Below the pieces are notes generated by a model. That model searched no databases, was not told the DNA's origin, and saw nothing but the letters and a program-made list of their open reading frames with translations. Made by a program: the position numbers and the translations under genes. A stretch of 41,404 bases of DNA, from assembly GCA_016199125.1 (NCBI GenBank), contig JACQHH010000181.1, positions 1 to 41,404 on the forward strand, in the 5' to 3' direction. The stretch comes from Candidatus Lambdaproteobacteria bacterium (GTDB lineage: Bacteria > SAR324 > JACQKK01). Every line of letters begins with the position of its first letter. Within the stretch, counting starts at the first letter, position 1. This document shows, piece by piece, positions 25,738 through 41,404 of this stretch.

Positions 25738-25740
25738 GCC

Positions 25741-26799: not shown

Positions 26800-26968
26800 G
26801 CGCGGCGCGGTCCGCCGCACCGCTGCGGGCAGAAGCACCGCGACCTGGGGGCCGCGGTCAGACGAACTGGGGGGTGCAGAGCGTTGGGGCGGCGCCGTGC
26901 GCTGCGGTGGCCCTTGGGGGCCCCGGCGCGGCGCTTCACGTGGCACCACTTCGATAGGGAGACGCAAA

Positions 26969-28204
26969 ATGAAGAGCTTTGGACGTACCGTGTTGGCGGT
27001 CCTGCTGGCGGGGGCCGCGGTGTTCGCGTGGGCGCTGCCGGCATCGCTGCGGGCCGCGCCGGTGGAATACAACGTGGCCGGGTTGGCCGACTATTCCGGT
27101 CCTTATGCCGATGTGATGCCCCTCATTTCCGACGGCCGCAAGGCGGTGTTCACCTGGTGGAACAAGGAAGTGGGTGCCAAGCTGGGCGTGCAGCTCAACT
27201 TCAAGGAATTCGACACGCGCTACGACACGGCCCAGACCGCCAGCCTGTGGCCCGGCGTGCTGGCCGACCTCAAGCCCATCATGATCATGGGCCTGGGTGG
27301 CCCGGACGTGGCGGCCCTGCGCCAGCGCCTGCCCGACGACAAGGTGCCGCTGTTGATGAGCACCGCCGCCTATGGCTTTGCGTGGCAGCCGGAGACGTGG
27401 TTCTTCAACCCGCGGCCCACCTACGCGCACGAGGCCGTGGCCTTCGCGGAGTGGTATCGCGGGCAGAAGGGCGCCAAGACCCTCAAGGTGGCCGTGATCA
27501 GCTCCGAGGCGTCGCCGGCCTATATCGACATCGCGAAAGGCATCGAGAAGTACGCCTCCATGAACCCGACGGTGGAAGTGGTGGAAACGGTGTACACGGC
27601 CGTGCAGCCCACCGACCTCTCCAGCCAGATCCGCCGCGTCGTGCGCAAGGGCGCCGAGGCGCTGCTGATCCAGACCAACACCGCCGTGGTGGTGGCCTCC
27701 AAGCGCGGCCTGGAAGCCGCGGGGCAGGGCGGCATTCCCCTCATGATGAGCTCCCACAACGGCCTGGCGGCTTCGGGCAAGGCCCTGGGCGGCCTGGAGC
27801 AGCTTGAAGGCTCCTTCGAGGTCTACGGCATCGCCAGCCCGGCCGACACCTCGGGCTCGGCCTACAAGTTCTACGAGATGCTGCGCAACGACTTTGGGGT
27901 GAAGGCGCCCTGGAACATCCTGGCCATCCAGGGCACGGAACAAGCCCTGTATTCGGTGCGGGCCGTGGAACAGGCCGTGAAGAAGGTGGGCGCGGCCAAT
28001 CTCACCGGCTCCGCGGTGCGCGAGGGGCTGTATGCGGGCAAGATCCCCAGCGAGGCAACCTTCGGCTTCCTGCCGGATCTGACGTTCACGCGCGAGGGGC
28101 CGTTCCCGGTGCGCGGGCTGACGGCCAACATCACCACCGTGAAGGGCGGCAAGTACACCCTGGCCGCGGCCAACGTGCCCGTGCCGGTCGTGGAAAAATG
28201 GTAG
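26969..28204 (+). CDS. Liv-type ABC substrate-binding protein
   Basis: Signal peptide, 'LADYSGPYAD', 'DTRYD'. GGGAG RBS; position inside the operon. Confidence 0.88.
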   Translation: MKSFGRTVLAVLLAGAAVFAWALPASLRAAPVEYNVAGLADYSGPYADVMPLISDGRKAVFTWWNKEVGAKLGVQLNFKEFDTRYDTAQTASLWPGVLADLKPIMIMGLGGPDVAALRQRLPDDKVPLLMSTAAYGFAWQPETWFFNPRPTYAHEAVAFAEWYRGQKGAKTLKVAVISSEASPAYIDIAKGIEKYASMNPTVEVVETVYTAVQPTDLSSQIRRVVRKGAEALLIQTNTAVVVASKRGLEAAGQGGIPLMMSSHNGLAASGKALGGLEQLEGSFEVYGIASPADTSGSAYKFYEMLRNDFGVKAPWNILAIQGTEQALYSVRAVEQAVKKVGAANLTGSAVREGLYAGKIPSEATFGFLPDLTFTREGPFPVRGLTANITTVKGGKYTLAAANVPVPVVEKW

Positions 28205-28297
28205 GCCCACGGCGCCCCGGCGTGCCGTCTCCGCGGCGCGCCGGGGTCTCCGGCGCGGCCCCGCGCCCTGGCCCCGCCCCATCGCAAGGAATCTCCC

Positions 28298-29089
28298 GTG
28301 CTTGAGCTCAACAACGTCGAGGCCATCTACAGCGAGGTGATCCTGGTGCTCAAAGGGATCAGCCTGCACGTCCCCGAGGGCGGCTGCGTGGCCCTGCTGG
28401 GCAGCAACGGCGCCGGCAAGAGCACGACGCTCAAGTGCATCTCCGGGCTGATCCGCCCGGAGGACGGCGCCGTCACCGGCGGCAACATCACCTTCCTGGG
28501 CAAGCGCATCGACGCGCTGCCCGCCGAGGCGGTGGTGCGCCGGGGTCTGGTGCACGTCATGGAAGGGCGCAAGGTGCTGGAGCACATGACCACCCAGCAG
28601 AACCTGATGGTCGGCGGGCACATGCACCGCGACGCGGCCCGGCGGCGCCAGAACCTGGAGCGCGTCTACGCCCTCATGCCGCCCCTGGCCAACCTGCGCC
28701 AGCGCACGGCGGGCTACCTGTCCGGCGGCGAGCAGCAGATGCTGGTCATCGGGCGCGCGCTGATGGCCGAGCCCACCATGATGCTCATCGACGAGCCGTC
28801 GCTGGGCCTGGCCCCCATGCTGGTCGAGGAAATCTACGCCATCCTGGCCGAGCTGCGGGCCCACGGGCTGACCTTGCTGCTCGTGGAGCAGAACACCCGC
28901 GCGGCGCTGGAGATCGCCGACCACGGCTACGTGATGGAAAACGGCCGCATCGTCATGGAAGGCAGCGCCGCGCAGCTCAAGAGCAACGAGGACATTCGCG
29001 AATTCTACCTGGGTCTGGACCAGTCGGGCGAGCGCAAGAGCTACCGCGACATCAAGCACTACAAGCGGCGCAAGCGCTGGCTGGGCTGA
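28298..29089 (+). CDS. livF: Liv-type ABC ATP-binding protein (LivF family)
   Basis: GSNGAGKST, LSGGEQQM, DEPSLGLAP, IREFYLG, YKRRKRW tail. Confidence 0.93.
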   Translation: MLELNNVEAIYSEVILVLKGISLHVPEGGCVALLGSNGAGKSTTLKCISGLIRPEDGAVTGGNITFLGKRIDALPAEAVVRRGLVHVMEGRKVLEHMTTQQNLMVGGHMHRDAARRRQNLERVYALMPPLANLRQRTAGYLSGGEQQMLVIGRALMAEPTMMLIDEPSLGLAPMLVEEIYAILAELRAHGLTLLLVEQNTRAALEIADHGYVMENGRIVMEGSAAQLKSNEDIREFYLGLDQSGERKSYRDIKHYKRRKRWLG

Positions 29090-29116
29090 CCCTCACCCGC
29101 CTCTGGAGGACCTGCC

Positions 29117-30310
29117 ATGAGACCCGTCGTGATAGCCGGCGCGGGCATGACCCCGTTCGGAAAATTCCTGGAACGCAACGTGCGCGACCTGGCCGAGCAG
29201 GCCACCCGCGCGGCCCTGGACGATGCCCACCTGACCCCCGCGGAGGTGGGCATGGTGGCCTTCGGCAACTCCAGTTCCGGGCTCATCACCGGGCAGGAGA
29301 ACATCCGCGGCCAGGCGGCCCTGCGCAACACGGGCCTGCTGGGTTGCCCCGTGGTCAACGTGGAAAATGCCTGCGCCTCCGGCTCCAGCGCCTTTCACCT
29401 GGCTTGGCTCTACGTGGCCTCGGGGATGTGCGACGTGGCGCTGGCCGTGGGGGCGGAAAAGCTGGCCCACCGGGACAAGGCCGTGCCCTTCGCGGCCATG
29501 GAGGCGGCCCTGGACCTGGAGGAGCGCGAGCAGCTCAAGGCGTCGCTGCACCAGAGCGCCGGCGCCGGCGCCACGCAGTCCATCTTCATGGACGTCTACG
29601 CCAACCTGACCCGGCAATACATGCGGCAATCCGGGGCCACGGCCGAGAACTTCGCCGACGTGGCCGTCAAGAGCCACTTCGCCGGCGCGCGCAATCCGCG
29701 CGCGCAGTTCCGCGAGGAGGTGAGCCGCGAGGCCGTGCTGGCCAGCCGCATGATCTCCGAGCCGCTGACCCTGATGATGTGCTCGCCCATCGGCGACGGA
29801 GCGGCGGCCCTGGTGCTGTGCAGCGAGGAGGCGGCCCGCCGCGGGGGCGCCGACGCCGTGAGCGTGCGCGCCTCGGTGCTGGTTTCCGGCAGCGCCCGCG
29901 GCGAGCTGGAGCCCCCGCCCACGCGCGCCTCGCGCCAGGCCTACGCGCTGGCCGGCATCGGCCCTGAGGACGTGGACGTGGTGGAGCTGCACGACGCGGC
30001 CGCGCCCGCAGAGCTGATGCTCTACGAGGAGCTGGGCCTGGCCGGCCGGGGCGAAGGGCCGGCGCTGCTGGCCTCGGGCAGGACCCGCGTCGGCGGCAAG
30101 ATGCCGGTCAATCCCAGCGGCGGTCTGCTGAGCAAGGGGCATCCGGTGGGTGCCACGGGCTGCGCGCAGCTCTTCGAGCTCACCGAGCAGTTGCGCGGGC
30201 GGGCCGGAGCGCGCCAGCGCGAGGGGGCCCGGGTGGCCCTGGCCGAAAACGGCGGGGGCTTCCTCAACCCCGACCCGGCGGCCTGCACCATCACCATTCT
30301 CGCCCGCTAG
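29117..30310 (+). CDS. Thiolase family protein (SCP2/SCP-x type)
   Basis: VENACASGS (catalytic Cys), CSPIGDGAAA, VELHDA, NPSGGLLSKGHPVGATG, ENGGG. GGAGG RBS. Confidence 0.92.
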   Translation: MRPVVIAGAGMTPFGKFLERNVRDLAEQATRAALDDAHLTPAEVGMVAFGNSSSGLITGQENIRGQAALRNTGLLGCPVVNVENACASGSSAFHLAWLYVASGMCDVALAVGAEKLAHRDKAVPFAAMEAALDLEEREQLKASLHQSAGAGATQSIFMDVYANLTRQYMRQSGATAENFADVAVKSHFAGARNPRAQFREEVSREAVLASRMISEPLTLMMCSPIGDGAAALVLCSEEAARRGGADAVSVRASVLVSGSARGELEPPPTRASRQAYALAGIGPEDVDVVELHDAAAPAELMLYEELGLAGRGEGPALLASGRTRVGGKMPVNPSGGLLSKGHPVGATGCAQLFELTEQLRGRAGARQREGARVALAENGGGFLNPDPAACTITILAR

Positions 30311-30469
30311 GCTTTGTTCGAGAATAGTTGCCATACCCTTCGAGACGCCGCGCATGGCGCGGCTCCTCAGGGATGCGGCTTTGAAATCACGAGTGAAACT
30401 GAATACCGCGTGGCTGAGGAGTGCCCGCAGGGCGCGTCTCGAAGCCCGCTTTTTTTCTCAAACAGAGCC
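30310..30469. mobile_element. MITE-like element (TIR family A), best-preserved copy, CTTCGAGAC-type REP cargo
   Basis: CTA|GGCTTTGTTCGAGAA ... TTCTCAAACAGAGCC|TAG (13/15 inverted match, TA on both sides). The 116-bp core 30334-30449 differs from 38543-38658 at 5 positions. Confidence 0.8.
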
Positions 30470-30507
30470 TAGGCCCGCGGGCCACGCGGCGACAGCAGGA
30501 GCAACCC

Positions 30508-31659
30508 ATGAACGCACCGTTGGCCGGCCTGCGCGTGCTGAGCCTGGCCGAGCAATACCCCGGCCCCTACGCCACGCTGATCCTGTCCGACCTGGGCGCC
30601 GACGTGGTGCTGGTGGAACGGCCGGGGGGCGATCCGGCGCGCATCTATCCCCAGTTCTTCGAGGCGCTCAACCGCAACAAGCGCAGCGCCACGCTGAACT
30701 TCAAGCTGCCCGCCGGCCGCGAAGCGTTCAAGCGCCTGGTGCGGGGGGCCGATGTGCTGCTGGAAGGCTACCGACCCGGCACCATGGCGCGCCTGGGGCT
30801 GGATTACGAGACGCTGAGCGCCATCAATCCGCGCCTGGTCTATGCCTCCATCTCGGGCTATGGCCAGGACGGGCCCTATCGCGACCGCACGGGGCACGAC
30901 ATTTCCTATGCGTCCACGGCGGGGCTGTTCTTCCCCCAGGCGCGGGACCCGGCCATCCCCGTTTCGCCCGTGGCGGTGGGCGACCTCTCCTCGGGCATGT
31001 TCGCCGTGATCGGCGTGCAGACCGCCCTGCTGGCGCGCGAGCGCACGGACCGCGGCACGTACATCGACGTCTCCATGTTCGACGGGCTGGTGTCCTGGAT
31101 GAGCGTGTTCGTGGTGCCGCCCATGAACGGCGATCCGCCGCCGCCCCTGGGCAGCGACCCGGGCTACGGCATCTACGCCTGCAAGGACGGCAAGGCCATC
31201 AGCCTCAGCGTGGCCCACGAGGACTGGTTCTGGCAGCCGCTCTGCGAGCGCATGGGCCTGACCGACCTGGCCGCCATTCCCCGCGACGAGCGCGCCGCGC
31301 GCGAAACCGAGCTGCGCGGGCGCCTGGGCCAGGCGTTCGCCACGCGCGAACGCGCCCACTGGGAGCAACTCTTCCAGGGCAGCGAGGTGCCCTTCGGCCC
31401 GGTGCACGACCTGGGCGACGTGGGGCACGATCCGCACGTCAAGGCGCGCGGACTGTTCACACGCGTGCCCACGCCCGCCGGCGAACGCTGGTTCACGCGC
31501 CAGCCCCTGGGCCTGCGCGGCTACGAGACGGCGCCCACGCGCGGCTGCCCGGCGCTGGGCGAGCACACGCGCGAGGTGCTGCGCGAGGGCGGCTTCACCC
31601 CCGCCGAGGTGGACGCCCTGTTGGCCGACGGCGCGGCCAGCGGAGCCGCCCCGGCCTGA
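30508..31659 (+). CDS. CoA-transferase family III (CaiB/BaiF)
   Basis: PLAGLRVL, PGPYATLILSDLGADV, NRNKRS, ISGYGQDGP, GHDISY, catalytic Asp in VGDLSSG, PALGEHT. AGGAG RBS. Confidence 0.93.
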   Translation: MNAPLAGLRVLSLAEQYPGPYATLILSDLGADVVLVERPGGDPARIYPQFFEALNRNKRSATLNFKLPAGREAFKRLVRGADVLLEGYRPGTMARLGLDYETLSAINPRLVYASISGYGQDGPYRDRTGHDISYASTAGLFFPQARDPAIPVSPVAVGDLSSGMFAVIGVQTALLARERTDRGTYIDVSMFDGLVSWMSVFVVPPMNGDPPPPLGSDPGYGIYACKDGKAISLSVAHEDWFWQPLCERMGLTDLAAIPRDERAARETELRGRLGQAFATRERAHWEQLFQGSEVPFGPVHDLGDVGHDPHVKARGLFTRVPTPAGERWFTRQPLGLRGYETAPTRGCPALGEHTREVLREGGFTPAEVDALLADGAASGAAPA

Positions 31660-31834
31660 GACGCGCCGGCCCGACCGACCGGCGCATCGCGGGGGCACTT
31701 TCTGCCGCCCGCGCGGTCTGAGCCGGCACCTGCTTCCCGCCGCTCGCTGTCCGCGTTGCCGTGCTGCCTTGCGTCGGGGCGCCGCGGCAATTCCTCACTC
31801 CCTGTTCTCTCATGTCACTCGCTGGAGGTCGCGC

Positions 31835-32623
31835 ATGGATAATCTTTTGGATCTGAAAGGCCGCATCGGGCTGGTCACCGGCGCCGGCCAGGGCGTGGGG
31901 CGCCAGATCGCCCTGCACTTCGCCGCGCACCGCGCGGGCGGCGTGGTGGTCAACGACTTCTACCGCGAGCGCGCCGAAGCCGTGGTGCGCGAGGTGCAGG
32001 CCGCCGGCGTCAAGGCGCTGGCGGTGGTGGGCGACATTTCCGATTACCAGGCCGTGCAGCAGATGGCGCGGCAGGCCGAGCAGACCTTCGGGCGCGTGGA
32101 CATCCTGGTCAACAACGCGGGCAATGCCGGCCCGGTCACCGACATTTCCAGCATCCCGCCCTTCCTGGAAAGCGACCCGGCATCCTGGCAGACCTGGTTC
32201 GGCACGAACCTCTTCGGCGTGCTCAACCTGTCGCGGGCGCTGGTGGGGGGCATGGTGCAGCGGGGCTACGGGCGGGTGATCACCGTCATTTCCGATGCCG
32301 GGCGCGTGGGCGAGCCGCACCTGGCGGTGTACTCGGCCGCCAAGGCGGGTGCCGCCGGGTTCATGCGGGCCCTGGCCAAGGGCGTGGGCCGCGCCAACGT
32401 CACGGTCAACTGCGTGGCGCCCGGCACCATCCAGACCCCCGCCACGGCCGGCCTGCTGGAGGATCAGGAAACCCTGAGGAAGATCCTGCGCCTGTACATG
32501 ATCCGCCGCCTGGGCGAGCCCAGCGACATCGCCAACATGGTGCTGTTCCTGGCCTCCGACGCGGCCGGCTGGGTCACCGGACAGACGTTTCCCGTCAACG
32601 GCGGCTATTCGGTGTCGGTCTAG
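31835..32623 (+). CDS. Short-chain dehydrogenase/reductase (hydroxyacyl-CoA dehydrogenase-like, BadH/FabG-related)
   Basis: TGAGQGVG, VVND (acidic residue suggests NAD), NNAG, ISDAGR, YSAAK. GGAGG RBS. Confidence 0.92.
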   Translation: MDNLLDLKGRIGLVTGAGQGVGRQIALHFAAHRAGGVVVNDFYRERAEAVVREVQAAGVKALAVVGDISDYQAVQQMARQAEQTFGRVDILVNNAGNAGPVTDISSIPPFLESDPASWQTWFGTNLFGVLNLSRALVGGMVQRGYGRVITVISDAGRVGEPHLAVYSAAKAGAAGFMRALAKGVGRANVTVNCVAPGTIQTPATAGLLEDQETLRKILRLYMIRRLGEPSDIANMVLFLASDAAGWVTGQTFPVNGGYSVSV

Positions 32624-32634
32624 GCCGCGGGCCT

Positions 32635-33822
32635 CTACTTCTGACCTGCCGCCGCCGCGCGCGGCGCCTCGCCGAAGGCGGACAGGCCCCCCAGCAGATT
32701 GCGCGCGATGACCAGCTTCTGGATCTGGCTCGTGCCGTCCGGGATGGTCATCATGCGCGCGTCGCGGAACAGGCCCTCCAGCGGATATTCCTGGCTCAGC
32801 CCGTAGGCCCCGTGAATCTGGATGGCGCGCGAGGTGATGCGCACGGCGGCCTCGGTGGCGTAGTACTTGGCCATGGAGGTCTGCGTGTCGCAGCGCGCGC
32901 CCTTGTCCACCAGCGACATGGCGCGGTAGGTCAGCAGGCGCGCGCAGTCCAGCTCGGTGGCCATGTCGGCGATCATGTCCTGGATGAGCTGGTGCTGCCC
33001 GATGCGCTTGCCCCACTGCTCCCGCTCCTGGGCATAGGCCAGGGAATGATCCAGCGCCGACTGCGCGATGCCCACCGAGGTGATGGCCACGAAGCAGCGC
33101 GCCCACTCGAACAGTTGCAGCGTGCGCTTGAGCCCCGTGCCCCATGCGCCCACCTGGGCCGAGGCCGGCACGCGGGCGTTGTCGAAGAACACCTCGGCCG
33201 TGGACCAGGCGTTGAGCCCCAGCTTGTGCAGCTCCCGCGTGGTGTAGCCGTGCGGCTCGCGGTCCACCACGAAGCGGTTCAGCCCCTTGGCCGCATCCTC
33301 GTGCCGCACCACGACGATGCACGCGTCCGAGATGCCGCCATTGGAGATCCAGTTCTTCTGCCCGTTGATCACGTAGCCGTCGCCCGCCGGCGTGGCCTTG
33401 GTGCTGACGTTGCGCACGTTGGAGCCCACGTTGGGCTCGGTGATCGCCGAGCAGCCGATCAGGTCGCCCGACATCAGCCCGGGCAGGTAGCGCGCGCGTT
33501 GCTCCGGCGTGCCGTCGTGATACAGCGTGAGCAGGAAGCCCTCGTTGATGAACGCCGTGCCCGCCAGCCCCGGAAACACGCGGAACAACTGCTCGTACAG
33601 CAGCCCCGAGGTCAGCACGGGCAGGCCCATGCCCCCGTCCCGTTCCGGAATGCTGCCTACGATGTAGCCGAAGGGGACGATCTTGCGCAGCAGCTCGTGC
33701 ATCACGGGCTTGGGCACGACGGTGTCGCGGTATTGTTCGGCATAGGGACGAATGTCCTGCTCCAGGAAGCGCCGGGCCGCATCGACGGCCAAGCGCTGCT
33801 CTTCGCTCAAGTCGAAATCCAC
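32635..33822 (-). CDS. Acyl-CoA dehydrogenase family protein
   Basis: DFDLSEEQ, AITEPNVGSN, INGQKNWISNG, KLG, REQWGKRIG, AIQIHGAYG, RDAR..TIPDGT. GTG start with GGAG RBS. Confidence 0.92.
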   Translation of the reverse strand: MDFDLSEEQRLAVDAARRFLEQDIRPYAEQYRDTVVPKPVMHELLRKIVPFGYIVGSIPERDGGMGLPVLTSGLLYEQLFRVFPGLAGTAFINEGFLLTLYHDGTPEQRARYLPGLMSGDLIGCSAITEPNVGSNVRNVSTKATPAGDGYVINGQKNWISNGGISDACIVVVRHEDAAKGLNRFVVDREPHGYTTRELHKLGLNAWSTAEVFFDNARVPASAQVGAWGTGLKRTLQLFEWARCFVAITSVGIAQSALDHSLAYAQEREQWGKRIGQHQLIQDMIADMATELDCARLLTYRAMSLVDKGARCDTQTSMAKYYATEAAVRITSRAIQIHGAYGLSQEYPLEGLFRDARMMTIPDGTSQIQKLVIARNLLGGLSAFGEAPRAAAAGQK

Positions 33823-33952
33823 GGTCTTTCTCCACGCTGAGATGGAAGGTTCGGGTGCCTGGTGCGGCGGATGCCCCACGCGGGGGGCGTGCGCGGTCCG
33901 GGCCTGAAGCCCAGGCATTGTACGAGGGTGCGCCAGGCGCGGATGTGCCTTA

Positions 33953-34064: not shown

Positions 34065-34106
34065 ATGATGTTTGTCATAGGAGAGCCGGCCACGAATCGC
34101 TAGTCT
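34065..34106 (+). promoter_or_regulatory. Crp/Fnr-type box plus -10 element for the DUF2249 gene
   Basis: ATGAT-GTTT-GTCAT (34065-34078), 22-bp gap, TAGTCT (34101-34106). Confidence 0.6.
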
Positions 34107-34252
34107 GAGCGAACCCAGGCGCAACCCGGACGTGGCGCGGCGCCGTTGCGCCGCCCCGCCGCTTGCGCCGAGCTGGGCCCCGGCGCCGGCCCGCCGCATG
34201 GCGCGGACCCCCGGCGCCCGCCACTTCCGCCGTCCCCACCCGTGGGCCGCCC

Positions 34253-34525
34253 ATGATCGCGTTCGAGCAGATCGATCCCTTCGTGAAGTTCTGGCAGGAA
34301 GACCGCACCTATCACCTGGACGTGCGCGAGCTGCTGGACAACGGCGGCGAGCCCTACGAGGTGATCATGTCCTGCGTGCTGCAGATCGACGCGGACGATC
34401 GGCTGGTGCTGCACGCCCCCTTCGAGCCCAAACCCCTCATCCGCCAGTTGCGCGGCATGGGCCTGCAGGCCCACAGCGCGCGGGTGGACGTGGATCATTG
34501 GACATTGGCCGTCAGTCGCGACTAG
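34253..34525 (+). CDS. DUF2249-domain (TusA/SirA-like fold) protein
   Basis: 'LDVRELLDNGGEPYEVIM...L.LHAPFEPKPL...L..MG......W' matches the DUF2249 pattern. Confidence 0.8.
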   Translation: MIAFEQIDPFVKFWQEDRTYHLDVRELLDNGGEPYEVIMSCVLQIDADDRLVLHAPFEPKPLIRQLRGMGLQAHSARVDVDHWTLAVSRD

Positions 34526-34695
34526 GCATTGTGTTGGAATGGCGGATCGCGTGAATCCGGCCGCGTTTGTCATTCCGAGGCCCGCAGTTTGGGCCGAGGA
34601 ATCTCATTGCTATAGCACGATGAGATTCCTCGCTGTGCTCGGAATGACAACAGGCGGGTAATTTTGAAGTTGCCATCGCATTGCCGAACAGAACC
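34525..34695. mobile_element. MITE-like element (TIR family A) carrying a GTCATTCCG-type REP hairpin
   Basis: CTA|GGCATTGTGTTGGAA ... TTGCCGAACAGAACC|TAG. Both flanking CTAGs are stop codons of convergent genes. Internal perfect 13-bp inverted repeat TTGTCATTCCGAG/CTCGGAATGACAA (34567-34650). Confidence 0.65.
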
Positions 34696-35084
34696 TAGTC
34701 CCGCGTCCAAAGCAGGGCGCGCAGCCTGGGGTGGCGCAGCGCCAGCCCGACCCACAACAGCGCCGCCACGTAGCACGGAAACAGCGTGTGGCTGAACAGC
34801 GGGCTGCCGATGCGCACGTGCGTGGCCACCGCACCCCCGAGATAGCCCGTCAGCCAGATCGAGCCGTAGAGCGCCGTCCACGGGATGACATAGAGCACCA
34901 GGCCCGCCAGCAGGAGTGCGCCGATGACCGGCACCGCGCCGGGCGGATAGCCGAGCTGGACGGTCCACTGGACGACGGCTTCCATGCGCAGCGCATGGGT
35001 CACTCCGTCGAAGAGGAGAAAAGCCACCGCGAGGCCGCTGAGCACGCGGCCGCTCCAGAGCTGTTTTCGTGTCACCTGATTCAT
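34695..35084 (-). CDS. DoxX-family membrane protein
   Basis: Four TM segments, 'LGYP', 'LYVIP.T...G...LTGYLGGAVATHVR'. GGAGG RBS before ATG 35084. Confidence 0.85.
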   Translation of the reverse strand: MNQVTRKQLWSGRVLSGLAVAFLLFDGVTHALRMEAVVQWTVQLGYPPGAVPVIGALLLAGLVLYVIPWTALYGSIWLTGYLGGAVATHVRIGSPLFSHTLFPCYVAALLWVGLALRHPRLRALLWTRD

Positions 35085-35230
35085 TGGCGTCGACCTCCCG
35101 TCCAGTCGGTTGGGCTGCGTGATGCGCTTGAACATCCCGTGGGTGCCGCGGGCGTCGCCCGGGATGCCGCAGGTCCATCCCCTTGCCGCCCGATGCGGCA
35201 AGGCCCGCGAATCCGCGCGCCACGGCGGGA

Positions 35231-35998
35231 TCAGGGTGAAGAGTCCTGGGACATCAGCTCCCGCAGCGCGTCCAGGTCGGGAATGAGAAATCCCTCCGGC
35301 GCCGAGTGCACCACGTTGTCCTTGTTCCAGCGGCTCATGATGCGGATCACGGTTTCCACCCGGGCGCCCACCATGCCGGCCACTTCGTTGCGGCTCAGGT
35401 GCACCGGCACCAGCACCCCGCCGTCCTGCTCCCGCCCCATCTCCCGCGCGTAGGTGAGCAGCAACTGGGCGATGCGCGACTGCACGCCGGCCTCCCCCAG
35501 CACCTCCAGCCGATGCCGCAGCGAGCGCACGCGCAGGTTGAGGTCGCGGATGATGGAGCGCGAAACCTCGGGAAAGCGCTCCAGCAGCTCCAGGTACTCC
35601 TTGCGCGCCAGCAGCATCACGCCGGCGTCCGTGCGGGCCACGGCATTGGCCGGGAAATCGTCGCCATTGATCAGCGCCACTTCGCCGAACGCTTCGCCGG
35701 GGCGGATGATGTCCATGATCATCTCACGCCCGGATTCCAGCGCCTTGAACACGGTCACCTCGCCCCTGAGCACGAAATAGAAATGCGTGCACGGATCGCC
35801 CTCGAAGAAGATCGCCTCGCCCTTGCGGTATTCGCGCAGGCTGCTCTGCTGGTGCAGCAGGGCGCGTGCCTTCTCGGAAATCCCTGAAAAGCGGGCGATT
35901 TTCTGGATGATGGCGGGGTCGATCAAGAGCGATCCTGATGCGGGGGCGGTCCCGGGCGCGGCGGGCGCTGGCGCAGGCGCCGTCCTACCCGCTACCAT
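35231..35998 (-). CDS. Crp/Fnr family transcriptional regulator (no FNR Cys cluster; DNR/NnrR/HcpR-like)
   Basis: cNMP-binding domain (IFFEGD, GEV, GEAFGEVA) and HTH 'SRNEVAGMVGARVETVIR'. Only one Cys. The true start may lie downstream of 35998. Confidence 0.9.
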   Translation of the reverse strand: MVAGRTAPAPAPAAPGTAPASGSLLIDPAIIQKIARFSGISEKARALLHQQSSLREYRKGEAIFFEGDPCTHFYFVLRGEVTVFKALESGREMIMDIIRPGEAFGEVALINGDDFPANAVARTDAGVMLLARKEYLELLERFPEVSRSIIRDLNLRVRSLRHRLEVLGEAGVQSRIAQLLLTYAREMGREQDGGVLVPVHLSRNEVAGMVGARVETVIRIMSRWNKDNVVHSAPEGFLIPDLDALRELMSQDSSP

Positions 35999-36040
35999 AT
36001 GACCGATGTCATAGTCGCGGCAACATGGCTATGGCAGAAT
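35999..36040 (+). promoter_or_regulatory. Crp/Fnr-type box plus extended -10 for the cytochrome b/Fe-S gene
   Basis: ATGAC-CGAT-GTCAT (35999-36012), 22-bp gap, TGG-CAGAAT (hexamer 36035-36040). Confidence 0.65.
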
Positions 36041-36112
36041 AGAATACCGATCAGAATTCAAATCCGCTGCCCCTGCCCGGGAGCCGCCTTCGCTTGAGCA
36101 CGGAGTTTCGTC

Positions 36113-37714
36113 TTGCAGACGCCCCACACCTATTTCCCCACACGCCCGCCGGCCGCACGGCTGGTGGAGCGGATTTTCAATCCGCTGGACACGCTGTGCA
36201 ACCGTCTCTACGGCTCGCGCTACAATCCGCTCTACCAGAGCGGCACCATCGCCGTGCTGAGCCTGCTGGTGCTGCTGGTGACGGGGCTCTACCTGCTGTG
36301 GTTCTACAAGATCGGAGCCCCCTACGAGTCCGTGACCAACATCGAAGCGCAGTGGTGGGGCGGCCGTTTGATCCGCGCGGTGCACGTGTATGCCGGTGAC
36401 GTCATGATGGTCGCCGTGGCGGTGCACGCGCTGCGCATGGCCCTGCGCGGGCGCACCTGGGGACCGCGGGTGCTGGCCTGGATCAGCGGCGTGGTGCTGG
36501 TGTCCATCGTCATGATGAGCAGCATCACGGGCATGGTGCTGGTGTGGGATGTGCAGGGCCAGTTGCTGGCCATCGAGGGCGCGCGCATGGCGGACACGCT
36601 GCCCATCTTCTCCGAGCCCATCCAGCGCACGTTCATCAGCAGCCAGGGGGTGCCGGCCTCGTTCTTCTTCCTCAACCTGATCCTGCACATGGTGTTTCCC
36701 TTCGCCATCCTGATCGGGCTGTGGGTGCACACGCTGCGCGTGTCGCGGCCGGCGCTGCTGCCGCCGCGCAAGCTGTCGGCGTGGCTGCTGGTGGCCCTGT
36801 TGGGGGTGTCGCTGGCCTATCCGGCGGGCATGCTGCCGCCTGCGGACTACCTGACCATCCTGGGCCGGGTGCCCGTGGACTGGATCAACACGTTCTGGCT
36901 GCTCGTCTCGCGCAACGTGCCGCCGCCGGTGACGCTGCTCAGCGGGCTGGCGCTGTTCCTGTTCCTGGTGAGCGTGCCCTGGTGGTGGAAGCCGCGCCTG
37001 GCGGCGCACCCGGAGCCCGCGCGGGCCAACCCCAACCTGTGTACGGGCTGCACCCAGTGCTACAAGGACTGCCCCTACGGGGCCATCAGCATGGTGCCGG
37101 CGCCGCCCAGCAACCATGCCACGGACATCGTGGCGCTGATCAATCCGGCGCTGTGCGTGAGCTGCGGCATCTGCGCCGGGTCCTGCGGCCCCATGGTCGT
37201 GGGTCCGCCGGGGCGCGTGGGGCGCGACCACCTGCTGGCGGCCCAGCGCCTGATGACCGCCGCGGCCCCCGGCGCCGAGGACATCGTGCTCATGGCCTGC
37301 GAGCAGGGGCTGGGGCTGGAGCCGGTGCTGGCCGGGCTGCCGCACGTGACCGTGCACCGCCTGCACTGCGCCGCCGCCGTGCACACCTCGGCCATGGAAT
37401 ACCTGCTGCGGCGCGGCTGCGGCGGGGTGTACGTGCTGGCCTGTCCGGAGCGCGACTGCGCCTATCGCGAAGGCCCCAGGTGGCTCCGTGAGCGGCTCTA
37501 CGAGGACCGCGAGGCCGAGCTGCAGCCGCGCGTGGACAAGCGCCGCGTGAAGATGGGCGGTTTCGGCCCGGCCGACCTGCCCCAGGCCCTGGCCGACATC
37601 GGCGCGTTCCAGGCGGACATCGCCGCCCTGGCCCACGAGGCCCGTGACGAAGGGGACGTGCAGCTCGAACCCGATTGCGAGCCCATGCCGCTGGCGGAGG
37701 TGGCCCATGGTTAG
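36113..37714 (+). CDS. Fusion protein: di-heme cytochrome b/b6 domain + 2x[4Fe-4S] ferredoxin + MvhD/FlpD-like [2Fe-2S] domain
   Basis: Heme His pairs RAVHVY..AVHALR and ILHMV..WVHTLR; 'LVTGLYL..FY..GAPYESV'; CTGCTQCYKDCP; CVSCGICAGSCG; MAC..LHCAAAV..ACPERDCAYREG. TTG start with GGAG RBS. Confidence 0.88.
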   Translation: MQTPHTYFPTRPPAARLVERIFNPLDTLCNRLYGSRYNPLYQSGTIAVLSLLVLLVTGLYLLWFYKIGAPYESVTNIEAQWWGGRLIRAVHVYAGDVMMVAVAVHALRMALRGRTWGPRVLAWISGVVLVSIVMMSSITGMVLVWDVQGQLLAIEGARMADTLPIFSEPIQRTFISSQGVPASFFFLNLILHMVFPFAILIGLWVHTLRVSRPALLPPRKLSAWLLVALLGVSLAYPAGMLPPADYLTILGRVPVDWINTFWLLVSRNVPPPVTLLSGLALFLFLVSVPWWWKPRLAAHPEPARANPNLCTGCTQCYKDCPYGAISMVPAPPSNHATDIVALINPALCVSCGICAGSCGPMVVGPPGRVGRDHLLAAQRLMTAAAPGAEDIVLMACEQGLGLEPVLAGLPHVTVHRLHCAAAVHTSAMEYLLRRGCGGVYVLACPERDCAYREGPRWLRERLYEDREAELQPRVDKRRVKMGGFGPADLPQALADIGAFQADIAALAHEARDEGDVQLEPDCEPMPLAEVAHG

Positions 37715-38339
37715 GCGCGCGGGACTGTGGGTGCTGCGCTTCGCGGTGCCCGTGCTGGCGCTGCTGGCGCTGGTCTGGGTGGCGCGGCTGCCCATGGGCA
37801 GCGATCCGCGGGATGGCCTGCTGCGCCTGGCCTGGCGCACCGTGGGCGCGCGCATCAAGGTGTGCCGCGACTACACGCCCGCAGAGCTGCAACGCGTTCC
37901 CGCGCACATGCGCGCCCAGCGCATCTGCGCGCAATCGCTGCTGCCCTATCGCGTGCGCGCCAGCGTGGACGGCGTGCCCGTGGTGGATCAGCTCGTGCAA
38001 CCGGCCGGCGTGCGCGGCGACAGGCCGCTGTTCGTGCATCGCGACCTGACCCTGGCGCCGGGCACCCATCGGCTGGCGTTGCACTGGGACCCGGAGCCGG
38101 CCGAGGGCATCGAGGACGCCGCCTTGCGCGACGCCACCCGCGACGCCACCGCCGACGCGTCCCGCTACGCCCTGGAGCGCGAGGTGCGCATCGCCGCGGG
38201 GCGCATCGTCATGATCGAGCTGGACGAAGCGGCGCGCGGATTCCGCGTGATCGGCGAGGGCCAGACCGCCTCCCGCGGCAACCAGGCTCTGTCCGGGAAA
38301 GACGAATCGTCGATTCTTCGGGCCCTGGTGTCATTCTGA
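37707..38339 (+). CDS. Hypothetical N-terminally anchored exported protein, translationally coupled to the cytochrome b/Fe-S fusion
   Basis: GGAGG RBS and 8-bp overlap with the upstream gene. One TM, then 'LRLAWR...C...PAHMR..C..', beta-rich 'LAPGTHRL'. The last 18 codons lie inside a MITE. Confidence 0.75.
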   Translation: MVRRAGLWVLRFAVPVLALLALVWVARLPMGSDPRDGLLRLAWRTVGARIKVCRDYTPAELQRVPAHMRAQRICAQSLLPYRVRASVDGVPVVDQLVQPAGVRGDRPLFVHRDLTLAPGTHRLALHWDPEPAEGIEDAALRDATRDATADASRYALEREVRIAAGRIVMIELDEAARGFRVIGEGQTASRGNQALSGKDESSILRALVSF

Positions 38340-38457
38340 GGCCCGCCCCGCGGGCCGAAGCATCTGTCGATCGCAGGCACATTGGATTCCCCGCTGTGCC
38401 CGGAATGACATCCCTTCGCCGGCGTTCGGAACTTCCCCCGCATTCCCAGACACAGCC
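38285..38457. mobile_element. MITE-like element (TIR family A) carrying a GTCATTC-type REP hairpin, overlapping a CDS end
   Basis: GGCTCTGTCCGGGAA ... TTCCCAGACACAGCC (13/15 inverted match). Internal TGTCATTCTGAGGCCCGC..GGGCCGA..CGGAATGACA (38329-38410) resembles 34567-34650. Confidence 0.7.
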
Positions 38458-38518
38458 GGGCCCCCCAGGGGGAGCCGGGCAGCCTTGCCCGGCGTGGGCT
38501 GCATCCTGACCCCCCCAA

Positions 38519-38681
38519 GGTTCTATCCGGGAATGGTTGCCGTACCCTTCGAGACGCCGCGCCTGGCGCGGCTCCTCGGGGATACGGCTTTGAAATCACG
38601 AGTGAAACTGAACACCGCGTGGCTGAGGAGAGCCCGCAGGGCGCGTCTCGAAGCCCGCATTTCACATTCTCGGACAGAGCT
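38519..38681. mobile_element. MITE-like element (TIR family A), near-identical sister of 30310-30469
   Basis: GGTTCTATCCGGGAA ... TTCTCGGACAGAGCT|TA (11/15). The right end coincides with the TAA stop of the Sco gene. 111/116 core identity with the 30334 copy. Confidence 0.8.
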
Positions 38682-39607
38682 TAGCTGCCGGCGCCGTCCG
38701 CGCGGCGCACCGCCTCCACGATCCAGGAGACTGGCGGATTGTTGAGCGCGTAGACGATCCGCAGGTCGCGGTCCAGCACGAAGACCAGCGGCACGTGGTC
38801 GATGACGCCCGTCCGCTCGTCTCGCCGACGCGCCACGCCGAACTGGTCCAGCACGCGGTTCACCCGCTCCACGTCTCCCGAAAGCATGAGCGTGCGCTCC
38901 GGCAGCTCCCAGTTCCGGCGCAGACCTTCCAACGCCGAGGGCGTGTCGCGCCAGGGATCCATGGTGATCACCACCAGCGCCGGGTTGACCGTGGCGGCCA
39001 GCTCCTTGGCACTGCGCGCCACCGTGCGCAGCACCAGCGGGCACACCGTTTCGCAGTGCCCGAAGCCGAAGGAGACGATCGCCGGGCGCCCGCGCAGGTG
39101 CGCCAGGGACAGCTTGGCCCCGTGCTGATCCACCAGCACAAAGTCCGGGGCCGGACGCTCCAACCGGGGATATCCCGCCGGCAGGGGCGCGATGGACTGG
39201 TTCACCTGCGGACCGCCGGCGCCCAACAGTCCCTGCCCCAGGCGCATGGCCACCCAGCCCGTTTCCAGCACCAGGGCCAGGGCCACCAGCCACATCAGCC
39301 CCATGCCCAGCGGCCGGCGGCCCAGTGCCCGCAGCCCGGCCAGCAGCTCCTGGGTCCAGCCCAGCCACAGCAGCGCCAGCATGCCCAGCGGGCCGGCGAT
39401 CAGCGCGCCCCATCCGTATGGCGCGGGCAGGCCATTGGCCTGGGTGCCGAAGCACACGCTCTGCAGCCGGGCCAGCCACACCGGCGCGGTACCTCCCTGC
39501 GGGGCGAAGGCCAGCCCCCACCAGCTCATGGTCGCGGCCAGCCACAACAGCAGCATCAGCAGCGACAGGTTCGCCCCTGGTGAACTTTTGGCCAAACTAG
39601 CGTTCAA
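38681..39607 (-). CDS. sco: Sco/SenC copper chaperone with an N-terminal multi-TM extension
   Basis: PDFVLVDQHG, FGFGHCETVCP (CxxxC), ITMDPWRDTP, IDH. About three N-terminal TM helices with 'VCFGT..NGLP'. Start approximate. Confidence 0.88.
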   Translation of the reverse strand: MNASLAKSSPGANLSLLMLLLWLAATMSWWGLAFAPQGGTAPVWLARLQSVCFGTQANGLPAPYGWGALIAGPLGMLALLWLGWTQELLAGLRALGRRPLGMGLMWLVALALVLETGWVAMRLGQGLLGAGGPQVNQSIAPLPAGYPRLERPAPDFVLVDQHGAKLSLAHLRGRPAIVSFGFGHCETVCPLVLRTVARSAKELAATVNPALVVITMDPWRDTPSALEGLRRNWELPERTLMLSGDVERVNRVLDQFGVARRRDERTGVIDHVPLVFVLDRDLRIVYALNNPPVSWIVEAVRRADGAGS

Positions 39608-39729
39608 TTCTTACTCGCGGTATGGATGAGCAGCCGAGGCGGCGTGAGGGCGCGGTGGCGACAACGGGTCGCACGGCCACGGTTCCATCGTTCCACATCT
39701 GCATTACGAATGGTGCGCGCCCAGGGGTA

Positions 39730-39772
39730 CATGACAATTGTCATGGCGCCCCCCCTGGCCGCACCGCATGAT
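39730..39772 (+). promoter_or_regulatory. Crp/Fnr-type box plus -10 element for the heme-copper oxidoreductase operon
   Basis: Perfect 16-bp palindrome CATGACAATTGTCATG (core ATGAC-AATT-GTCAT, 39731-39744), 22-bp gap, CATGAT (39767-39772). Confidence 0.7.
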
Positions 39773-39843
39773 GCACCTGACCGCTGTGCCGCGCCAGGCG
39801 GCAGGTGTTCGACAATGTCAACCCGCGAATCAAAGGGATAGCC

Positions 39844-40008
39844 ATGAGCGCAAGCCCTGACTCCAGAAACGAGCGAGTGCCGTTCATGCAGCAACTGTTC
39901 GACAGCCCGTTCCTGCTGCTCATTGCCGGGCTGGTGGTGATGTTCATCTTCTTTACGGGCTGGGGATTGGTGGAAATCTTCTCCCTGCCGCCCGCCACAT
40001 TGCCCTGA
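39844..40008 (+). CDS. Small single-TM subunit of the heme-copper oxidoreductase (subunit IIa-like)
   Basis: 54 aa, 'PFMQQLFDSPFLLLIAGLVVMFIFFTGWGLVEI', immediately before a one-TM subunit II as in B-family operons. Confidence 0.7.
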   Translation: MSASPDSRNERVPFMQQLFDSPFLLLIAGLVVMFIFFTGWGLVEIFSLPPATLP

Positions 40009-40028: not shown

Positions 40029-40568
40029 ATGCCGATGCATTCGGGTATCGTCTCACCCCAGGGCGTCTGGTGGAAGCCCGTGGGCAAGCAGGAAAAAATC
40101 TGGGTCACCGTGGCCTTCATCTGGTGCATGGTGCTCTTTGCCATGATGCCCTTCTGGCACTTCAAGGGCGGCCAGAACCCCTCCGGCACCCGCAGCCGCG
40201 TGGAGCCGGCAGCCTATTTCGAGCGCGTCAACCGCTTCGTCGAAGACTACAAGGTCGGCGAGGAGAATGGCGTGCCCATCGTGGAACCGCCGCCGGGCAG
40301 CGAGGTGTACCTGTTGGCGCGCATGTGGCAATGGTATCCCATCCTCAAGCTCAAGCAGGGAGCCACCTACACGTTGCACCTCTCGTCGCTGGACCTGAAC
40401 CACGGCTTCAGCCTGTACCCGGTCAACATCAACTTCCAGGTCATCCCGGGCTACGACTATGGGCTGCAGATGACACCCAACCGTTCAGGTGATTTTCGCA
40501 TCGTCTGCAACGAATTCTGTGGGATTGGCCACCACTTGATGGTGGGCAAAGTCCTCGTCGAACCGTAG
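40029..40568 (+). CDS. Heme-copper oxidoreductase subunit II with CuA site (B-family type, single TM)
   Basis: DLNHGF and CNEFCGIGHHLM (H...CxExCxxxHxxM). AGGAGG RBS. Confidence 0.93.
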   Translation: MPMHSGIVSPQGVWWKPVGKQEKIWVTVAFIWCMVLFAMMPFWHFKGGQNPSGTRSRVEPAAYFERVNRFVEDYKVGEENGVPIVEPPPGSEVYLLARMWQWYPILKLKQGATYTLHLSSLDLNHGFSLYPVNINFQVIPGYDYGLQMTPNRSGDFRIVCNEFCGIGHHLMVGKVLVEP

Positions 40569-40613: not shown

Positions 40614-41404
40614 ATGAGCGTTGCCCAAAGCGCAGCCGCACCAGGCCTGTTCCGCACATGCCCGGTGACGACGCTCAAGATTCACCGCAGCGCCGAAACG
40701 CTGATCAAGGTCAATGCGGTGGTGGCAGTGGTCGCGTTTCTGATCGGCGTCTCTGCCGCCATTCTGCTCGTTTTGACCCGCTGGCAGGTCGTGCACCTGC
40801 TGCCGGCCGACTGGTATTACCGCATCTTGACGGCCCACGGCCTCAACATGCTGATTTTCTTCATCCTGTTCTTCGAGATGGCGGTGCTCTACTTTGCCGG
40901 GCCCGTCCTGCTCAACAGCCGTCTGCCCGCGCCCTGGGCCGGCTGGCTGGCCTTCGGGCTGATGGTGGTGGGGGCCGCGATGGTGGAGGTGATGGTCTTC
41001 ACCGGGCGCGCCGACGTGCTGTTCACCTCATACGTGCCGTTGAAGGCCCATCCCAACTACTACCTGGGGATCATCCTCTTCGCCGTGGGCGCGCTGATCG
41101 TCACGATCCTGTTCCTGGCCACGCTGGTCGTGGCCAAGCGCGAGAAAACCTACACGGGCTCCATGCCGCTGGTGACCTTCGGCGCTCTCACGGCCGATAT
41201 CATCGCGATCGTCACGCTGCTGCACGGCGCGGCCATCTACATCCCCACCTGGCTGTGGTCCATGGGGCTGATGAACGTGGACCCGGAGGTCTACCGCATG
41301 GTGTGGTGGGCCCTGGGTCACGCCTCGCAGCAGATCAACGTGGCCGCCATGGTCTCCATCTGGTACCTCATGGCCGGGTTCACGGTGGGCGGCGTGGTGC
41401 TCAA
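40614..41404 (+). CDS. Heme-copper oxidoreductase subunit I, B-family derived, eNOR-like nitric oxide reductase (truncated by the window end)
   Basis: Missing from the ORF track because it has no stop. AGGAGG RBS, ATG 40614, open to the end. YYRILTAHG (low-spin heme His), LFTSYVPL, helix VI WWALGHASQQ (His codon 41319, Gln at the H+4 Tyr position). Confidence 0.88.
   Translation, partial: MSVAQSAAAPGLFRTCPVTTLKIHRSAETLIKVNAVVAVVAFLIGVSAAILLVLTRWQVVHLLPADWYYRILTAHGLNMLIFFILFFEMAVLYFAGPVLLNSRLPAPWAGWLAFGLMVVGAAMVEVMVFTGRADVLFTSYVPLKAHPNYYLGIILFAVGALIVTILFLATLVVAKREKTYTGSMPLVTFGALTADIIAIVTLLHGAAIYIPTWLWSMGLMNVDPEVYRMVWWALGHASQQINVAAMVSIWYLMAGFTVGGVVL

Follow-up and report, generated by a model that had tools for sequence, protein, structure and literature searches.

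Among the described regulators, those closest to the system reported here are DNR of Pseudomonas and NnrR of the alpha-proteobacteria, two-domain proteins without a cysteine cluster which act on boxes with a TGA-N6-TCA core at class II distance and whose targets are nirK, a nitric oxide (NO) reductase-type oxidase, nnrS and nosZ. Further relatives are DnrT of Thermus thermophilus, HcpR of the delta-proteobacterial type, which reads the motif wyTTGACnnnnGTCAArw, and FNR of Escherichia coli. Here we describe a Crp/Fnr regulator and a set of palindromic boxes in a stretch of 41,404 bases (hereafter the window) of Candidatus Lambdaproteobacteria bacterium, a member of SAR324. The window is contig JACQHH010000181.1 (contig C155 in our numbering) of assembly GCA_016199125.1, which comprises 2.98 Mb (2,984,672 bases) in 238 contigs with 68% G+C. 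Comparison of genomes indicates that the clade of this regulator probably reads a variant box, with A instead of T at the outer position, and activates a denitrification regulon in a class II manner.

The locus has in common with DNR and NnrR the build of the regulator, the missing cluster, the core of the box and its predicted distance and, in silico, the targets. It differs from them probably in clade, and in the box, which starts with T in DNR and NnrR, and in the recognition helix (E..SR there, ETVIR here); in addition, a cytochrome b-FeS-FlpD module and a conserved DUF2249 neighbour belong to the regulon here. The V-E-T-x-x-R helix of E. coli FNR is one change away (Ser to Ile), and site width, symmetry and the predicted -41.5 distance are the same, but FNR has an N-terminal Cys cluster and its outer half-site base is T instead of A. 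T. thermophilus DnrT is likewise a Crp-family activator of denitrification that drives a DUF2249 gene (PMC6282519). The Thermus system differs in its boxes (TGACC-N2-GGTCA), in the pairing of DnrT with DnrS, which has no counterpart here, and in that the DUF2249 protein DrpA is reported as periplasmic. The regulator was rejected as a DnrT orthologue, the identity being 31% over 222 residues, as to many family members, and the helix of DnrT being PEAVSR; the DnrT gene neighbours the nar operon and the gene of the GAF protein DnrS on a plasmid of T. thermophilus. On that plasmid (L149), TGACCCAGGTCA was found at 9675-9686 between dnrT and a hemerythrin-domain gene, and sites of this kind number three in 18.6 kb, where 0.17 would be expected.

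The sequences that come next to the clade without belonging to it compare with HcpR; they are 30-35% identical, have the helix PETLSR and are labelled Desulfobulbaceae. They have TTGAC-N4-GTCAA boxes 50-100 base pairs (bp) ahead of their own gene, and this motif is given for HcpR with Ser or Pro at position 180 (Rodionov et al., 2005). The clade described here differs in its A-type box, in having none ahead of its own gene and in its targets, which are denitrification genes and not hcp/frdX. When the HcpR box forms TTGAC-N4-GTCAA, TGTGA-N6-TCACA and GTAAC-N4-GTTAC were tested, no T-type and no G-type site was found in 21 loci with an Ile-type helix, and HcpR was rejected as an identity of the regulator.

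Three Boxes in the Window Precede Respiratory Genes

A first-pass annotation, made from the letters of the window, had pointed to three boxes, each followed after exactly 22 nucleotides (nt) by a -10-like hexamer, and all three were recovered with their hexamers at this distance on the plus strand. Box 1 (ATGATGTTTGTCAT, 34065-34078) lies upstream of a DUF2249 gene (34253-34525, plus strand) and is followed by TAGTCT at 34101-34106, with a predicted transcription start site (TSS) near 34113. Box 2 (ATGACCGATGTCAT, 35999-36012) lies between the divergent genes of the regulator (minus strand) and of a cytochrome b/Fe-S fusion protein (36113-37714, plus strand); its hexamer CAGAAT (36035-36040) predicts a TSS near 36047, and a TAGAAT starts at 36040, after CAGAAT. 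Box 3 (ATGACAATTGTCAT, 39731-39744) lies between an SCO gene (38681-39607, minus strand) and a heme-copper oxidase operon that starts at 39844 on the plus strand. It is followed by CATGAT at 39767-39772, with a predicted TSS near 39779, and on the SCO side a weak CGTAAT is present at equal distance on the other strand. The names that the annotation had given to the genes around the boxes (DUF2249, Crp/Fnr regulator, cytochrome b/Fe-S fusion, divergent SCO, heme-copper operon) were also found to be right.

A search with the pattern ATGAYNNNNGTCAT identified four distinct sites in the window (seven strand-wise matches). In 100 dinucleotide-preserving shuffles of the window the mean was 0.04 and none reached seven, and with four window sites against 0.04 the boxes are not due to chance. 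The fourth exact site, at 5576, is inside a branched-chain amino-acid permease gene; it is probably not functional and was dropped as a target.

To avoid circularity, a matrix of 20 columns was built from 15 sites that all come from other genomes, and it was run over all 2,984,672 bases. The four best matches of the whole genome were box 2 (score 26.3, rank 1), a site at C45:5957 (25.5), box 3 (23.4, rank 3) and box 1 (22.0, rank 4); the fifth, at 19.7, is intragenic. By pattern, 19 strict sites and 26 ATGAY-N4-RTCAT sites are present genome-wide, the majority of them inside genes. The site at C45:5957 (ATGACAAATGTCAT) stands ahead of a gene for a multicopper-oxidase and cytochrome c protein (NirK-cytochrome c fusion), after which a second SCO gene follows. 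Its position ahead of this gene was fixed by Pfam and by the orthologue in genome G016, in which the counterpart behind TATGATTTCGGTCATA consists of NirK (79% identity), an FGE-sulfatase/NirV-like gene and SCO (71%). Since the genome is 73.5% complete, the list of regulon members is a lower bound. PF18764 gave no match to nosZ in this incomplete genome, and the control search gave no match anywhere either.

Sites at C3:15509 (HigB/HTH pair), C35:7291 (Mo-hydroxylase/asd), C116:8608 (TetR gene) and C32:318 were not counted, as they score 15-19, have no conserved counterpart and belong to unrelated functions. The first of these regions (C3:15440-15530, L001) contains ATGACCACTGTCAT and a nearby palindromic stretch rich in ATGAC...GTCAT ahead of a HigB-like toxin/HTH_3 antitoxin pair, and this palindromic site is more likely an antitoxin operator than a regulon site.

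The Boxes Are Kept at the Same Gene Families in Relatives

An orthologue search in 61 genomes, of which 18 are of the same family, identified orthologues of the regulator (47-59% identity) in five of these 18 genomes; the other matches among the 61 genomes were at most 29% identical and are paralogues. When the five sister genomes with an orthologue were searched throughout by pattern, with the reversed pattern as control, YATGAY-N4-RTCATR sites were seen in all five (three to nine each, versus zero to one for the control). Boxes were found ahead of nosZ in G003, G014 and G001, and at the oxidase/SCO pair and the cytochrome b-FeS operon in G016 and G014. G016 repeats the layout of the window, with oxidase and SCO diverging from one box and the cytochrome b-FeS operon reading away from a further one, and has a box ahead of napD-napA-napB. 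In G014, a box precedes the gene of a chemoreceptor with a NIT (nitrate/nitrite-sensing) domain.

A wider scan by pattern and tblastn, with one genome per species, yielded 407 relatives, and the analysis went on with the best 80 loci among them. Ten of these 80 have a regulator of 41-57% identity and are labelled as Pseudomonadota, Deltaproteobacteria, Binatia or Bacteriovoracaceae metagenome-assembled genomes (MAGs); two of the ten duplicate loci already in the set and were counted once. The sequence (T/C)ATGAY-N4-RTCAT(A/G) is present in nine of the ten. Behind the boxes at these loci are genes for DUF2249, for cytochrome b-FeS-FlpD with its partner, and for a small protein, COX2-like and COX1 subunits and SCO, and further for NirK-cytochrome c with an FGE-sulfatase (NirV-like) and for a high-potential iron-sulfur protein (HiPIP); in G006 a box stands ahead of nosZ-nosR. 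The earlier suggestion that the boxes form one regulon is borne out by the top ranks in a matrix from other genomes and by orthologous loci that keep the box at the same gene families. The genome-wide scan which that annotation had called for placed the box at nirK here and at nap and nosZ in sister genomes, with no hcp among the annotated genes flanking boxes. In metagenomes of this group, the box could serve to annotate denitrification regulons and hence the likely sources and sinks of N2O.

At two loci (L139 in G003:C1 and L147 in G001:C177), a box was found just past the end of a second, shorter Crp/Fnr paralogue of 201-210 amino acids. The next genes there encode a MacB/FtsX permease and an unknown protein.

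Box Type Goes With the Recognition Helix

The recognition helix of the regulator is ARVETVIRIMSRW (ETVIR type), and its orthologues all have R-[VIT]-E-T-V-I-R-[IV]-M-S. We take CRP position 184 to be equivalent to FNR Ser212, which, according to work on the interconversion of CRP and FNR, reportedly reads the outer T of TTGAT. To relate helix and box, 83 loci were sorted by the residue at the FNR Ser212/CRP Gly184 position. The 21 loci with an Ile-type helix (250 kb) have ATGAY-N4-RTCAT in 14 (25 sites) and TTGAY-N4-RTCAA in none. The 61 loci with a Ser-type helix (725 kb) have ATGAY-N4-RTCAT in three (three sites) and TTGAY-N4-RTCAA in 24 (24 sites), and a single locus with Thr at the same position has neither type. 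Ile in place of the FNR Ser therefore appears to go with A in place of T at the outer box base, a covariation which, because the relatives are not independent, is a pattern and not a statistical test. The variant box that the first-pass annotation had proposed is thus seen to be paired with a variant helix across loci.

Co-evolution of helix and box at positions 180 and 181 has been described for the Crp/Fnr family, and the A-type box is absent from the motifs listed there (Rodionov et al., 2005). A literature search for the A-type box turned up TTGAC-type boxes only, within a limited literature collection. The pairing of Ile with ATGA would be a new helix-box pair for the Crp/Fnr recognition code.

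Distant homologues (29-33% identity) with the helix VETCIR were observed at three loci of FCPU426-labelled MAGs. L095, L104 and L113 have five, four and two ATGA-N6-TCAT boxes (five, three and one by strict ATGAY-N4-RTCAT), which stand ahead of histidine kinase genes, a pair of genes for hemerythrin and cytochrome c, a VIT-family gene, genes resembling acetyl-CoA synthetase and the regulator's own gene. FCPU426 is a second lineage with a predicted Ile/A-box pairing and a different regulon.

Promoter Spacing Fits Class II Activation

A -10 hexamer at -12 to -7 combined with a 22-nt spacer puts the centre of a box at -41.5, where CRP and FNR sit at class II promoters, and the TSS predictions given above (34113, 36047 and 39779) follow from this spacer arithmetic. 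The spacing was analyzed in 26 box-direction pairs anchored at the box, over offsets 8 to 39. A.A...T hexamer begins at offset 23 (22-nt spacer) in 13 pairs, and at each of the 31 other offsets in zero to three. The more stringent TA...T is seen six times at offset 23, no other offset having it more than once, and -10 scores average +0.3 for offset 23 versus -5 to -11 at the other offsets. In a second set of ten pairs from sister genomes,.A...T was found three times each at offsets 23 and 24 and no more than once at any other offset. The class II geometry claimed for the three boxes of the window appears to extend across genomes, with a -10-like hexamer enriched exactly 22 nt after the box, and the spacing fits activation from -41.5.

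The Regulator Probably Represents a Crp/Fnr Clade of Its Own

The longest open reading frame (ORF) of the regulator begins at ATG 35998, adjoining box 2. All five orthologues compared begin with M-[LIP]-[DEN]-x-x-x-[IL]-x-[KR]-[ILV]-x-R-F, and the matching point of the window is TTG 35926, preceded by AGGA at a distance of 7 nt. The gene is most likely 35231-35926 on the minus strand, encoding 231 amino acids from this TTG. The earlier description of box 2 as abutting the regulator start is true only of the longest ORF; with the probable start at TTG 35926, the box ends 73 bp ahead of the start codon.

Membership in the Crp/Fnr superfamily is evident from PF00027 (86 bits, cut-off 27.5) and PF13545 (51.2 bits, cut-off 27). 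The regulator scores below every NCBIfam cut-off: 75 against 266 bits for CRP (NF008732), 70 against 245 for NtcA, 67 against 300 for FixK and 37.9 against 228 for Fnr (NF008365). Among solved structures, it scores 83 bits with CRP of M. tuberculosis, 73 with NtcA, 57 with DNR of P. aeruginosa (3dkw) and 45 with FixK2. As had been noted before, an FNR-type Cys cluster is missing: the regulator has a single Cys, which is unconserved among six orthologues. An FNR oxygen sensor was ruled out by this and by the NF008365 score. CRP was ruled out by the NF008732 score and by the position of CRP Arg82, a residue of the phosphate-binding cassette which we take to hold cAMP; this position is an invariant Pro92 here, in a match that uses a 10-residue offset versus E. 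coli CRP chains and assumes few gaps. By these comparisons the regulator probably has a clade of its own within the superfamily. It would act like DNR, NnrR and DnrT yet, by the family scores, the identity with DnrT and the missing Cys cluster, probably belongs to none of them. The label "DNR/NnrR-like" accordingly describes the predicted function well (nirK, NO reductase-like oxidase, nnrS, nosZ and nap as targets) and probably fails for the family, as the score with DNR (57 bits) is lower than those with CRP (83) and NtcA (73).

Four Crp/Fnr paralogues in the genome are above the Pfam cut-off. Their recognition helices are RETVSY (on contig C5), PETIAR, in a protein with an N-terminal Cys cluster (C226, FNR-like), REVVSR (C184) and VETVIR in the regulator of the window, which is the only one of the four with Ile at the FNR-Ser212 position.

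Autoregulation, which the first-pass annotation had also claimed, finds no support in relatives, where none of 11 loci has a box ahead of the regulator gene. On the regulator side of box 2 there is no -10-like hexamer at class II distance (score -9.8). Autoregulation is conceivable in this genome alone, because the cytochrome b promoter happens to be divergent.

A Predicted Activator of Denitrification Genes

In the mechanism that we consider likely, a dimer of the regulator would bind the palindrome (T/C)ATGAY-N4-RTCAT(A/G) of 14-16 bp. Centred about 41.5 bp before the TSS, the box would overlap the -35 region, and from there the regulator would activate promoters of the sigma-70 type. Four promoters of this genome would be controlled: that of DUF2249, that of cytochrome b-FeS-FlpD and its 210-residue partner, that of the sNOR-like oxidase operon (with NnrS) together with the divergent SCO, and that of nirK-cytochrome c on C45. 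Because the same box precedes napDAB, nosZ and the gene of a nitrate/nitrite chemoreceptor in sister genomes, the regulator is predicted to be the master activator of denitrification in the lineage. In this way, sequence alone would give the circuit that controls a complete nap-nirK-sNOR-nosZ pathway in a lineage not yet cultured. The signal is neither a cyclic nucleotide nor an FNR-type Fe-S cluster; judged from the content of the regulon, it is probably NO, another N-oxide or a low-oxygen cue. This cue may be sensed directly or via the DUF2249 protein, which would itself be induced by the regulator.

Several observations weigh against this mechanism. The alignment of regulator orthologues has no invariant His or Cys, so that no ligand residue is identifiable in it. 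Of the 26 box-direction pairs, 13 have no.A...T hexamer at offset 23, and the Binatia-labelled loci and the nirK promoter of this genome fit only at 21-24 nt. No box was found near the regulator in G003 (L033, 10.1 kb), in G001 (L037, 5.7 kb) or on the short contig L041, and few independent lineages underlie the helix-box covariation. Finally, a similar palindrome of Thermus, CTTGACCNNGGTCATGG, was gel-shifted by the Rrf2-type NsrR and not by the Crp-family DnrT (PMC5748679).

The DUF2249 Protein as a Possible Partner

The DUF2249 (DrpA-like) protein of the window consists of 90 amino acids and was assigned by PF10006 (40.7 bits), by the alignment of orthologues and by a model with a predicted local distance difference test score (pLDDT) of 94; alternative in-frame upstream starts of its gene are possible at 34199 and 34163. 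In a profile search, DUF2249 was found directly beside the regulator at ten of 13 near-clade loci (11 of 14 with the window) and at none of 70 other loci. A box stands ahead of DUF2249 in all 11 such loci, and DUF2249 is the most constant member of the regulon.

A complex of two regulator chains and one DUF2249 chain was modelled in three runs, which scored 0.65, 0.00 and 0.64 (median 0.64), against 0.04 for the best of three controls. The mark passed by this median is reached by 116 of 157 solved complexes and by 2 of 215 mismatched pairs, a comparison that is rough only, given our own alignments and the set-up with 2+1 chains. The pLDDT of the partner was at least 79, and the runs agreed with one another to at least 0%. 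A sequence search gave no solved relative of this DUF2249, and a pass that reflects memorised structures is therefore unlikely. The contacts in the model involve, on the DUF2249 side, the invariant GGEPY loop and residues 56-70; on the regulator side, one subunit contributes residues 61-72 and 83-92 and the second subunit residues 8-15 and 131-142. At the offset of 10, regulator residues 61-72 and 83-92 correspond to CRP 51-62 and 73-82, which presumably are the beta4-beta5 flap, in which activating region 3 lies, and the cassette for cAMP. A fold search with the DUF2249 model gave no match at E <= 0.001. The best fit to a small domain, SirA/TusA-like 3hz7, is weak (template modelling score 0.55/0.65, root-mean-square deviation 2.9 A, E 0.16). 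Invariant residues of DUF2249 are His21, Asp23, Glu33 and His54.

The model supports binding of DUF2249 by the regulator and does not demonstrate it. Tentatively, DUF2249 may be a dedicated partner that docks across the regulator dimer, on the beta4-beta5 flap and phosphate-binding cassette of one subunit and the C-helix of the other, to give a two-protein sensor-activator with feedback. DUF2249 docked in this way would fill the place of cAMP in CRP and the class II sigma-contact site, and its His21, Asp23, Glu33 and His54 may carry the metal or N-oxide sensing that is missing from the regulator. The one model run of the three that showed no interface speaks against a partnership.

In an alternative reading, the regulator binds the boxes but does not sense NO itself, being blind to any signal or driven by its concentration, as Thermus DnrT is reported to be. 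The cue (nitrate, nitrite, NO or oxygen) would enter through DUF2249, which docks on the sensory domain and turns the regulator off or on. We regard this as possible, though short of probable. The position of DUF2249 beside the regulator in the near clade and the window and in none of the 70 loci elsewhere, always behind a box, fits such a role, as do the difference between the model median and its control and the lack of an invariant His or Cys in the regulator. In Thermus, moreover, DrpA depends on DnrT and feeds back, since DnrS, DnrT and nitrate reductase go up when DrpA or DrpB is lost (PMC6282519). On the other hand, one of the three runs was empty, and a score from a model does not amount to binding. 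DrpA was put in the periplasm by the Thermus authors, who proposed no direct contact between DrpA and DnrT, and DnrT is only 31% identical to the regulator, with a helix of the Ser type. All four DUF2249 genes of Haloferax mediterranei are upregulated under denitrification (PMC11218638). If the partnership is true, DUF2249 (DrpA-like) proteins, which are found beside denitrification genes from Thermus to haloarchaea, would gain a first molecular role.

Other Signals, Binders and Modes of Action

The signal could also be low oxygen, the redox state or nitrate/nitrite and not NO, with the regulator acting as an anaerobic switch like FNR/ANR or NarR. The regulon covers the whole pathway, including nap in G016 and the nitrate/nitrite chemoreceptor in G014, and thus reaches beyond nir and nor, and the sNOR genes of Nitrosomonas europaea are upregulated 2.7-10.8-fold under oxygen limitation (10.1101/765727). 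Such a switch is, however, at odds with the missing FNR-type Cys cluster, and the genome has a separate FNR-like paralogue (C226) and seven classical FNR-type boxes. Furthermore, nirK, the NO reductase-like oxidase and nnrS are core targets of the NO-responsive NnrR/DNR regulons (Rodionov et al., 2005). We consider a switch of this kind a serious minority option, doubtful on present evidence.

It is improbable that the boxes are bound by another factor, either a further Crp/Fnr paralogue or an Rrf2/NsrR-type protein. The three additional Crp/Fnr paralogues of the genome and the gel shift with Thermus NsrR would favour such a binder, whereas over 82 loci the type of box tracks the helix type of the adjacent regulator, box and regulator clade co-occur in all five same-family genomes with an orthologue, and the other paralogues carry Ser-, Ala- or Tyr-type helices. 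Repression from these sites is still less probable and hardly to be expected: a site overlapping -35 can also block RNA polymerase, and box 2 is without a spaced -10 toward the regulator gene, but a -35 of their own is not recognisable in the promoters, a -10-like hexamer at a fixed distance of 22 nt is a signature of class II activation, and the characterised Crp/Fnr-family denitrification regulators are all activators (Rodionov et al., 2005).

Respiratory Genes Behind the Boxes

The operon behind box 3 begins with a gene for a small membrane protein of 54 amino acids (39844-40008, plus strand), which has orthologues in G016 and G014. It is followed on the same strand by oxidase subunit II (40029-40568), which retains a CuA-type site (C-x-E-x-C-G-x2-H-x2-M), and by the N-terminal half of a B-family-related heme-copper subunit I (40614-41404), which is cut by the contig end. 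The closest solved relative of the oxidase is the ba3 B-family oxidase (E 4e-43). The GHPIVY motif of ba3, with the cross-linked Tyr237, has Gln in place of Tyr in the orthologue (GHSSQQ) and in the window (GHASQQ). Loss of the cross-linked Tyr is used as a criterion for NO reductases, and eNOR, sNOR and nNOR, as well as gNOR, are relatives of the B family, the first three with CuA subunits (PMC11214002; Murali et al., 2024). By its B-family kin, the missing Tyr and the CuA site, the oxidase agrees with the B-family-derived NO reductases, taken as the sNOR/eNOR/bNOR group as a whole. In ammonia oxidisers the norSY-senC cluster represents sNOR, the NO-reductase function of which is debated (10.1101/765727); linkage to senC/SCO is common to sNOR and the oxidase of the window.

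In the region 13185-15714 of contig C200, residues 250-575 of subunit I were found at the contig end (minus strand), 68% identical to the L042 orthologue, and an NnrS gene comes next. The oxidase operon thus probably continues into nnrS; we infer the join of C155 and C200 from the protein alignment, as the contig ends do not overlap. The SCO gene (PF02630, 84 bits) encodes an SCO1/SenC copper chaperone with a membrane N-terminus of about 150 amino acids. It is divergent from the oxidase also in G016 and G014; in L040 and L042 it is a gene of the oxidase operon itself.

The gene behind box 2 encodes a fusion protein of 533 amino acids, in which an N-terminal cytochrome b is joined to two [4Fe-4S] motifs and an FlpD-like domain. 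A box precedes the orthologues in L043, L045, L046, L047 and L141 (six loci with the window). The fusion gene is always followed by a gene for a conserved protein with one N-terminal hydrophobic stretch, in the window of 210 amino acids (37707-38339, plus strand), for which no match was found in Pfam or NCBIfam. Its L141 orthologue is 44% identical, and a protein of 170-186 amino acids is encoded at the same place in L043, L045, L046 and L047. The fusion and its family-less partner of about 170-210 amino acids form a conserved two-gene module, which may be a candidate for the quinol-oxidising electron entry for NirK and the oxidase. The shared control ties the sNOR-type oxidase and the cytochrome b-FeS-FlpD fusion to nirK and nosZ, and because of it a role of both in N-oxide respiration is supported.

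Neighbouring Genes and Further Features of the Window

A gene for a DoxX_2 membrane protein (34695-35201, minus strand) lies between DUF2249 and the regulator and has no box. It is missing from this position in relatives, where DUF2249 comes directly after the regulator, and it is not counted as a demonstrated member of the regulon.

Two copies of an element of about 82 bp with inverted ends (TGTCATTCYGAGG ... GGAATGACA) are present at 34568-34649 and 38329-38410, directly past the stop codons of box-controlled operons (DUF2249 and the 210-residue protein gene). Its end motifs occur 7 + 7 times in the genome, three times as correctly spaced pairs, and the element looks like a repetitive extragenic palindrome (REP) or miniature inverted-repeat transposable element (MITE). 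A classical FNR-type box, TTGACCTAGGTCAA, was found at 21846-21859, 48 bp upstream of a gene for a LivG-like ABC ATPase (21906-22826). It is one of the seven TTGAY-N4-GTCAA sites of the genome and is probably read by a Ser/Ala-type Crp/Fnr paralogue. Genes of acyl-CoA metabolism (for thiolase-like proteins, a family III CoA-transferase and acyl-CoA dehydrogenase) are plentiful in the region 25738-33918 of the window and on contig C3, as are those of branched-chain ABC transporters.

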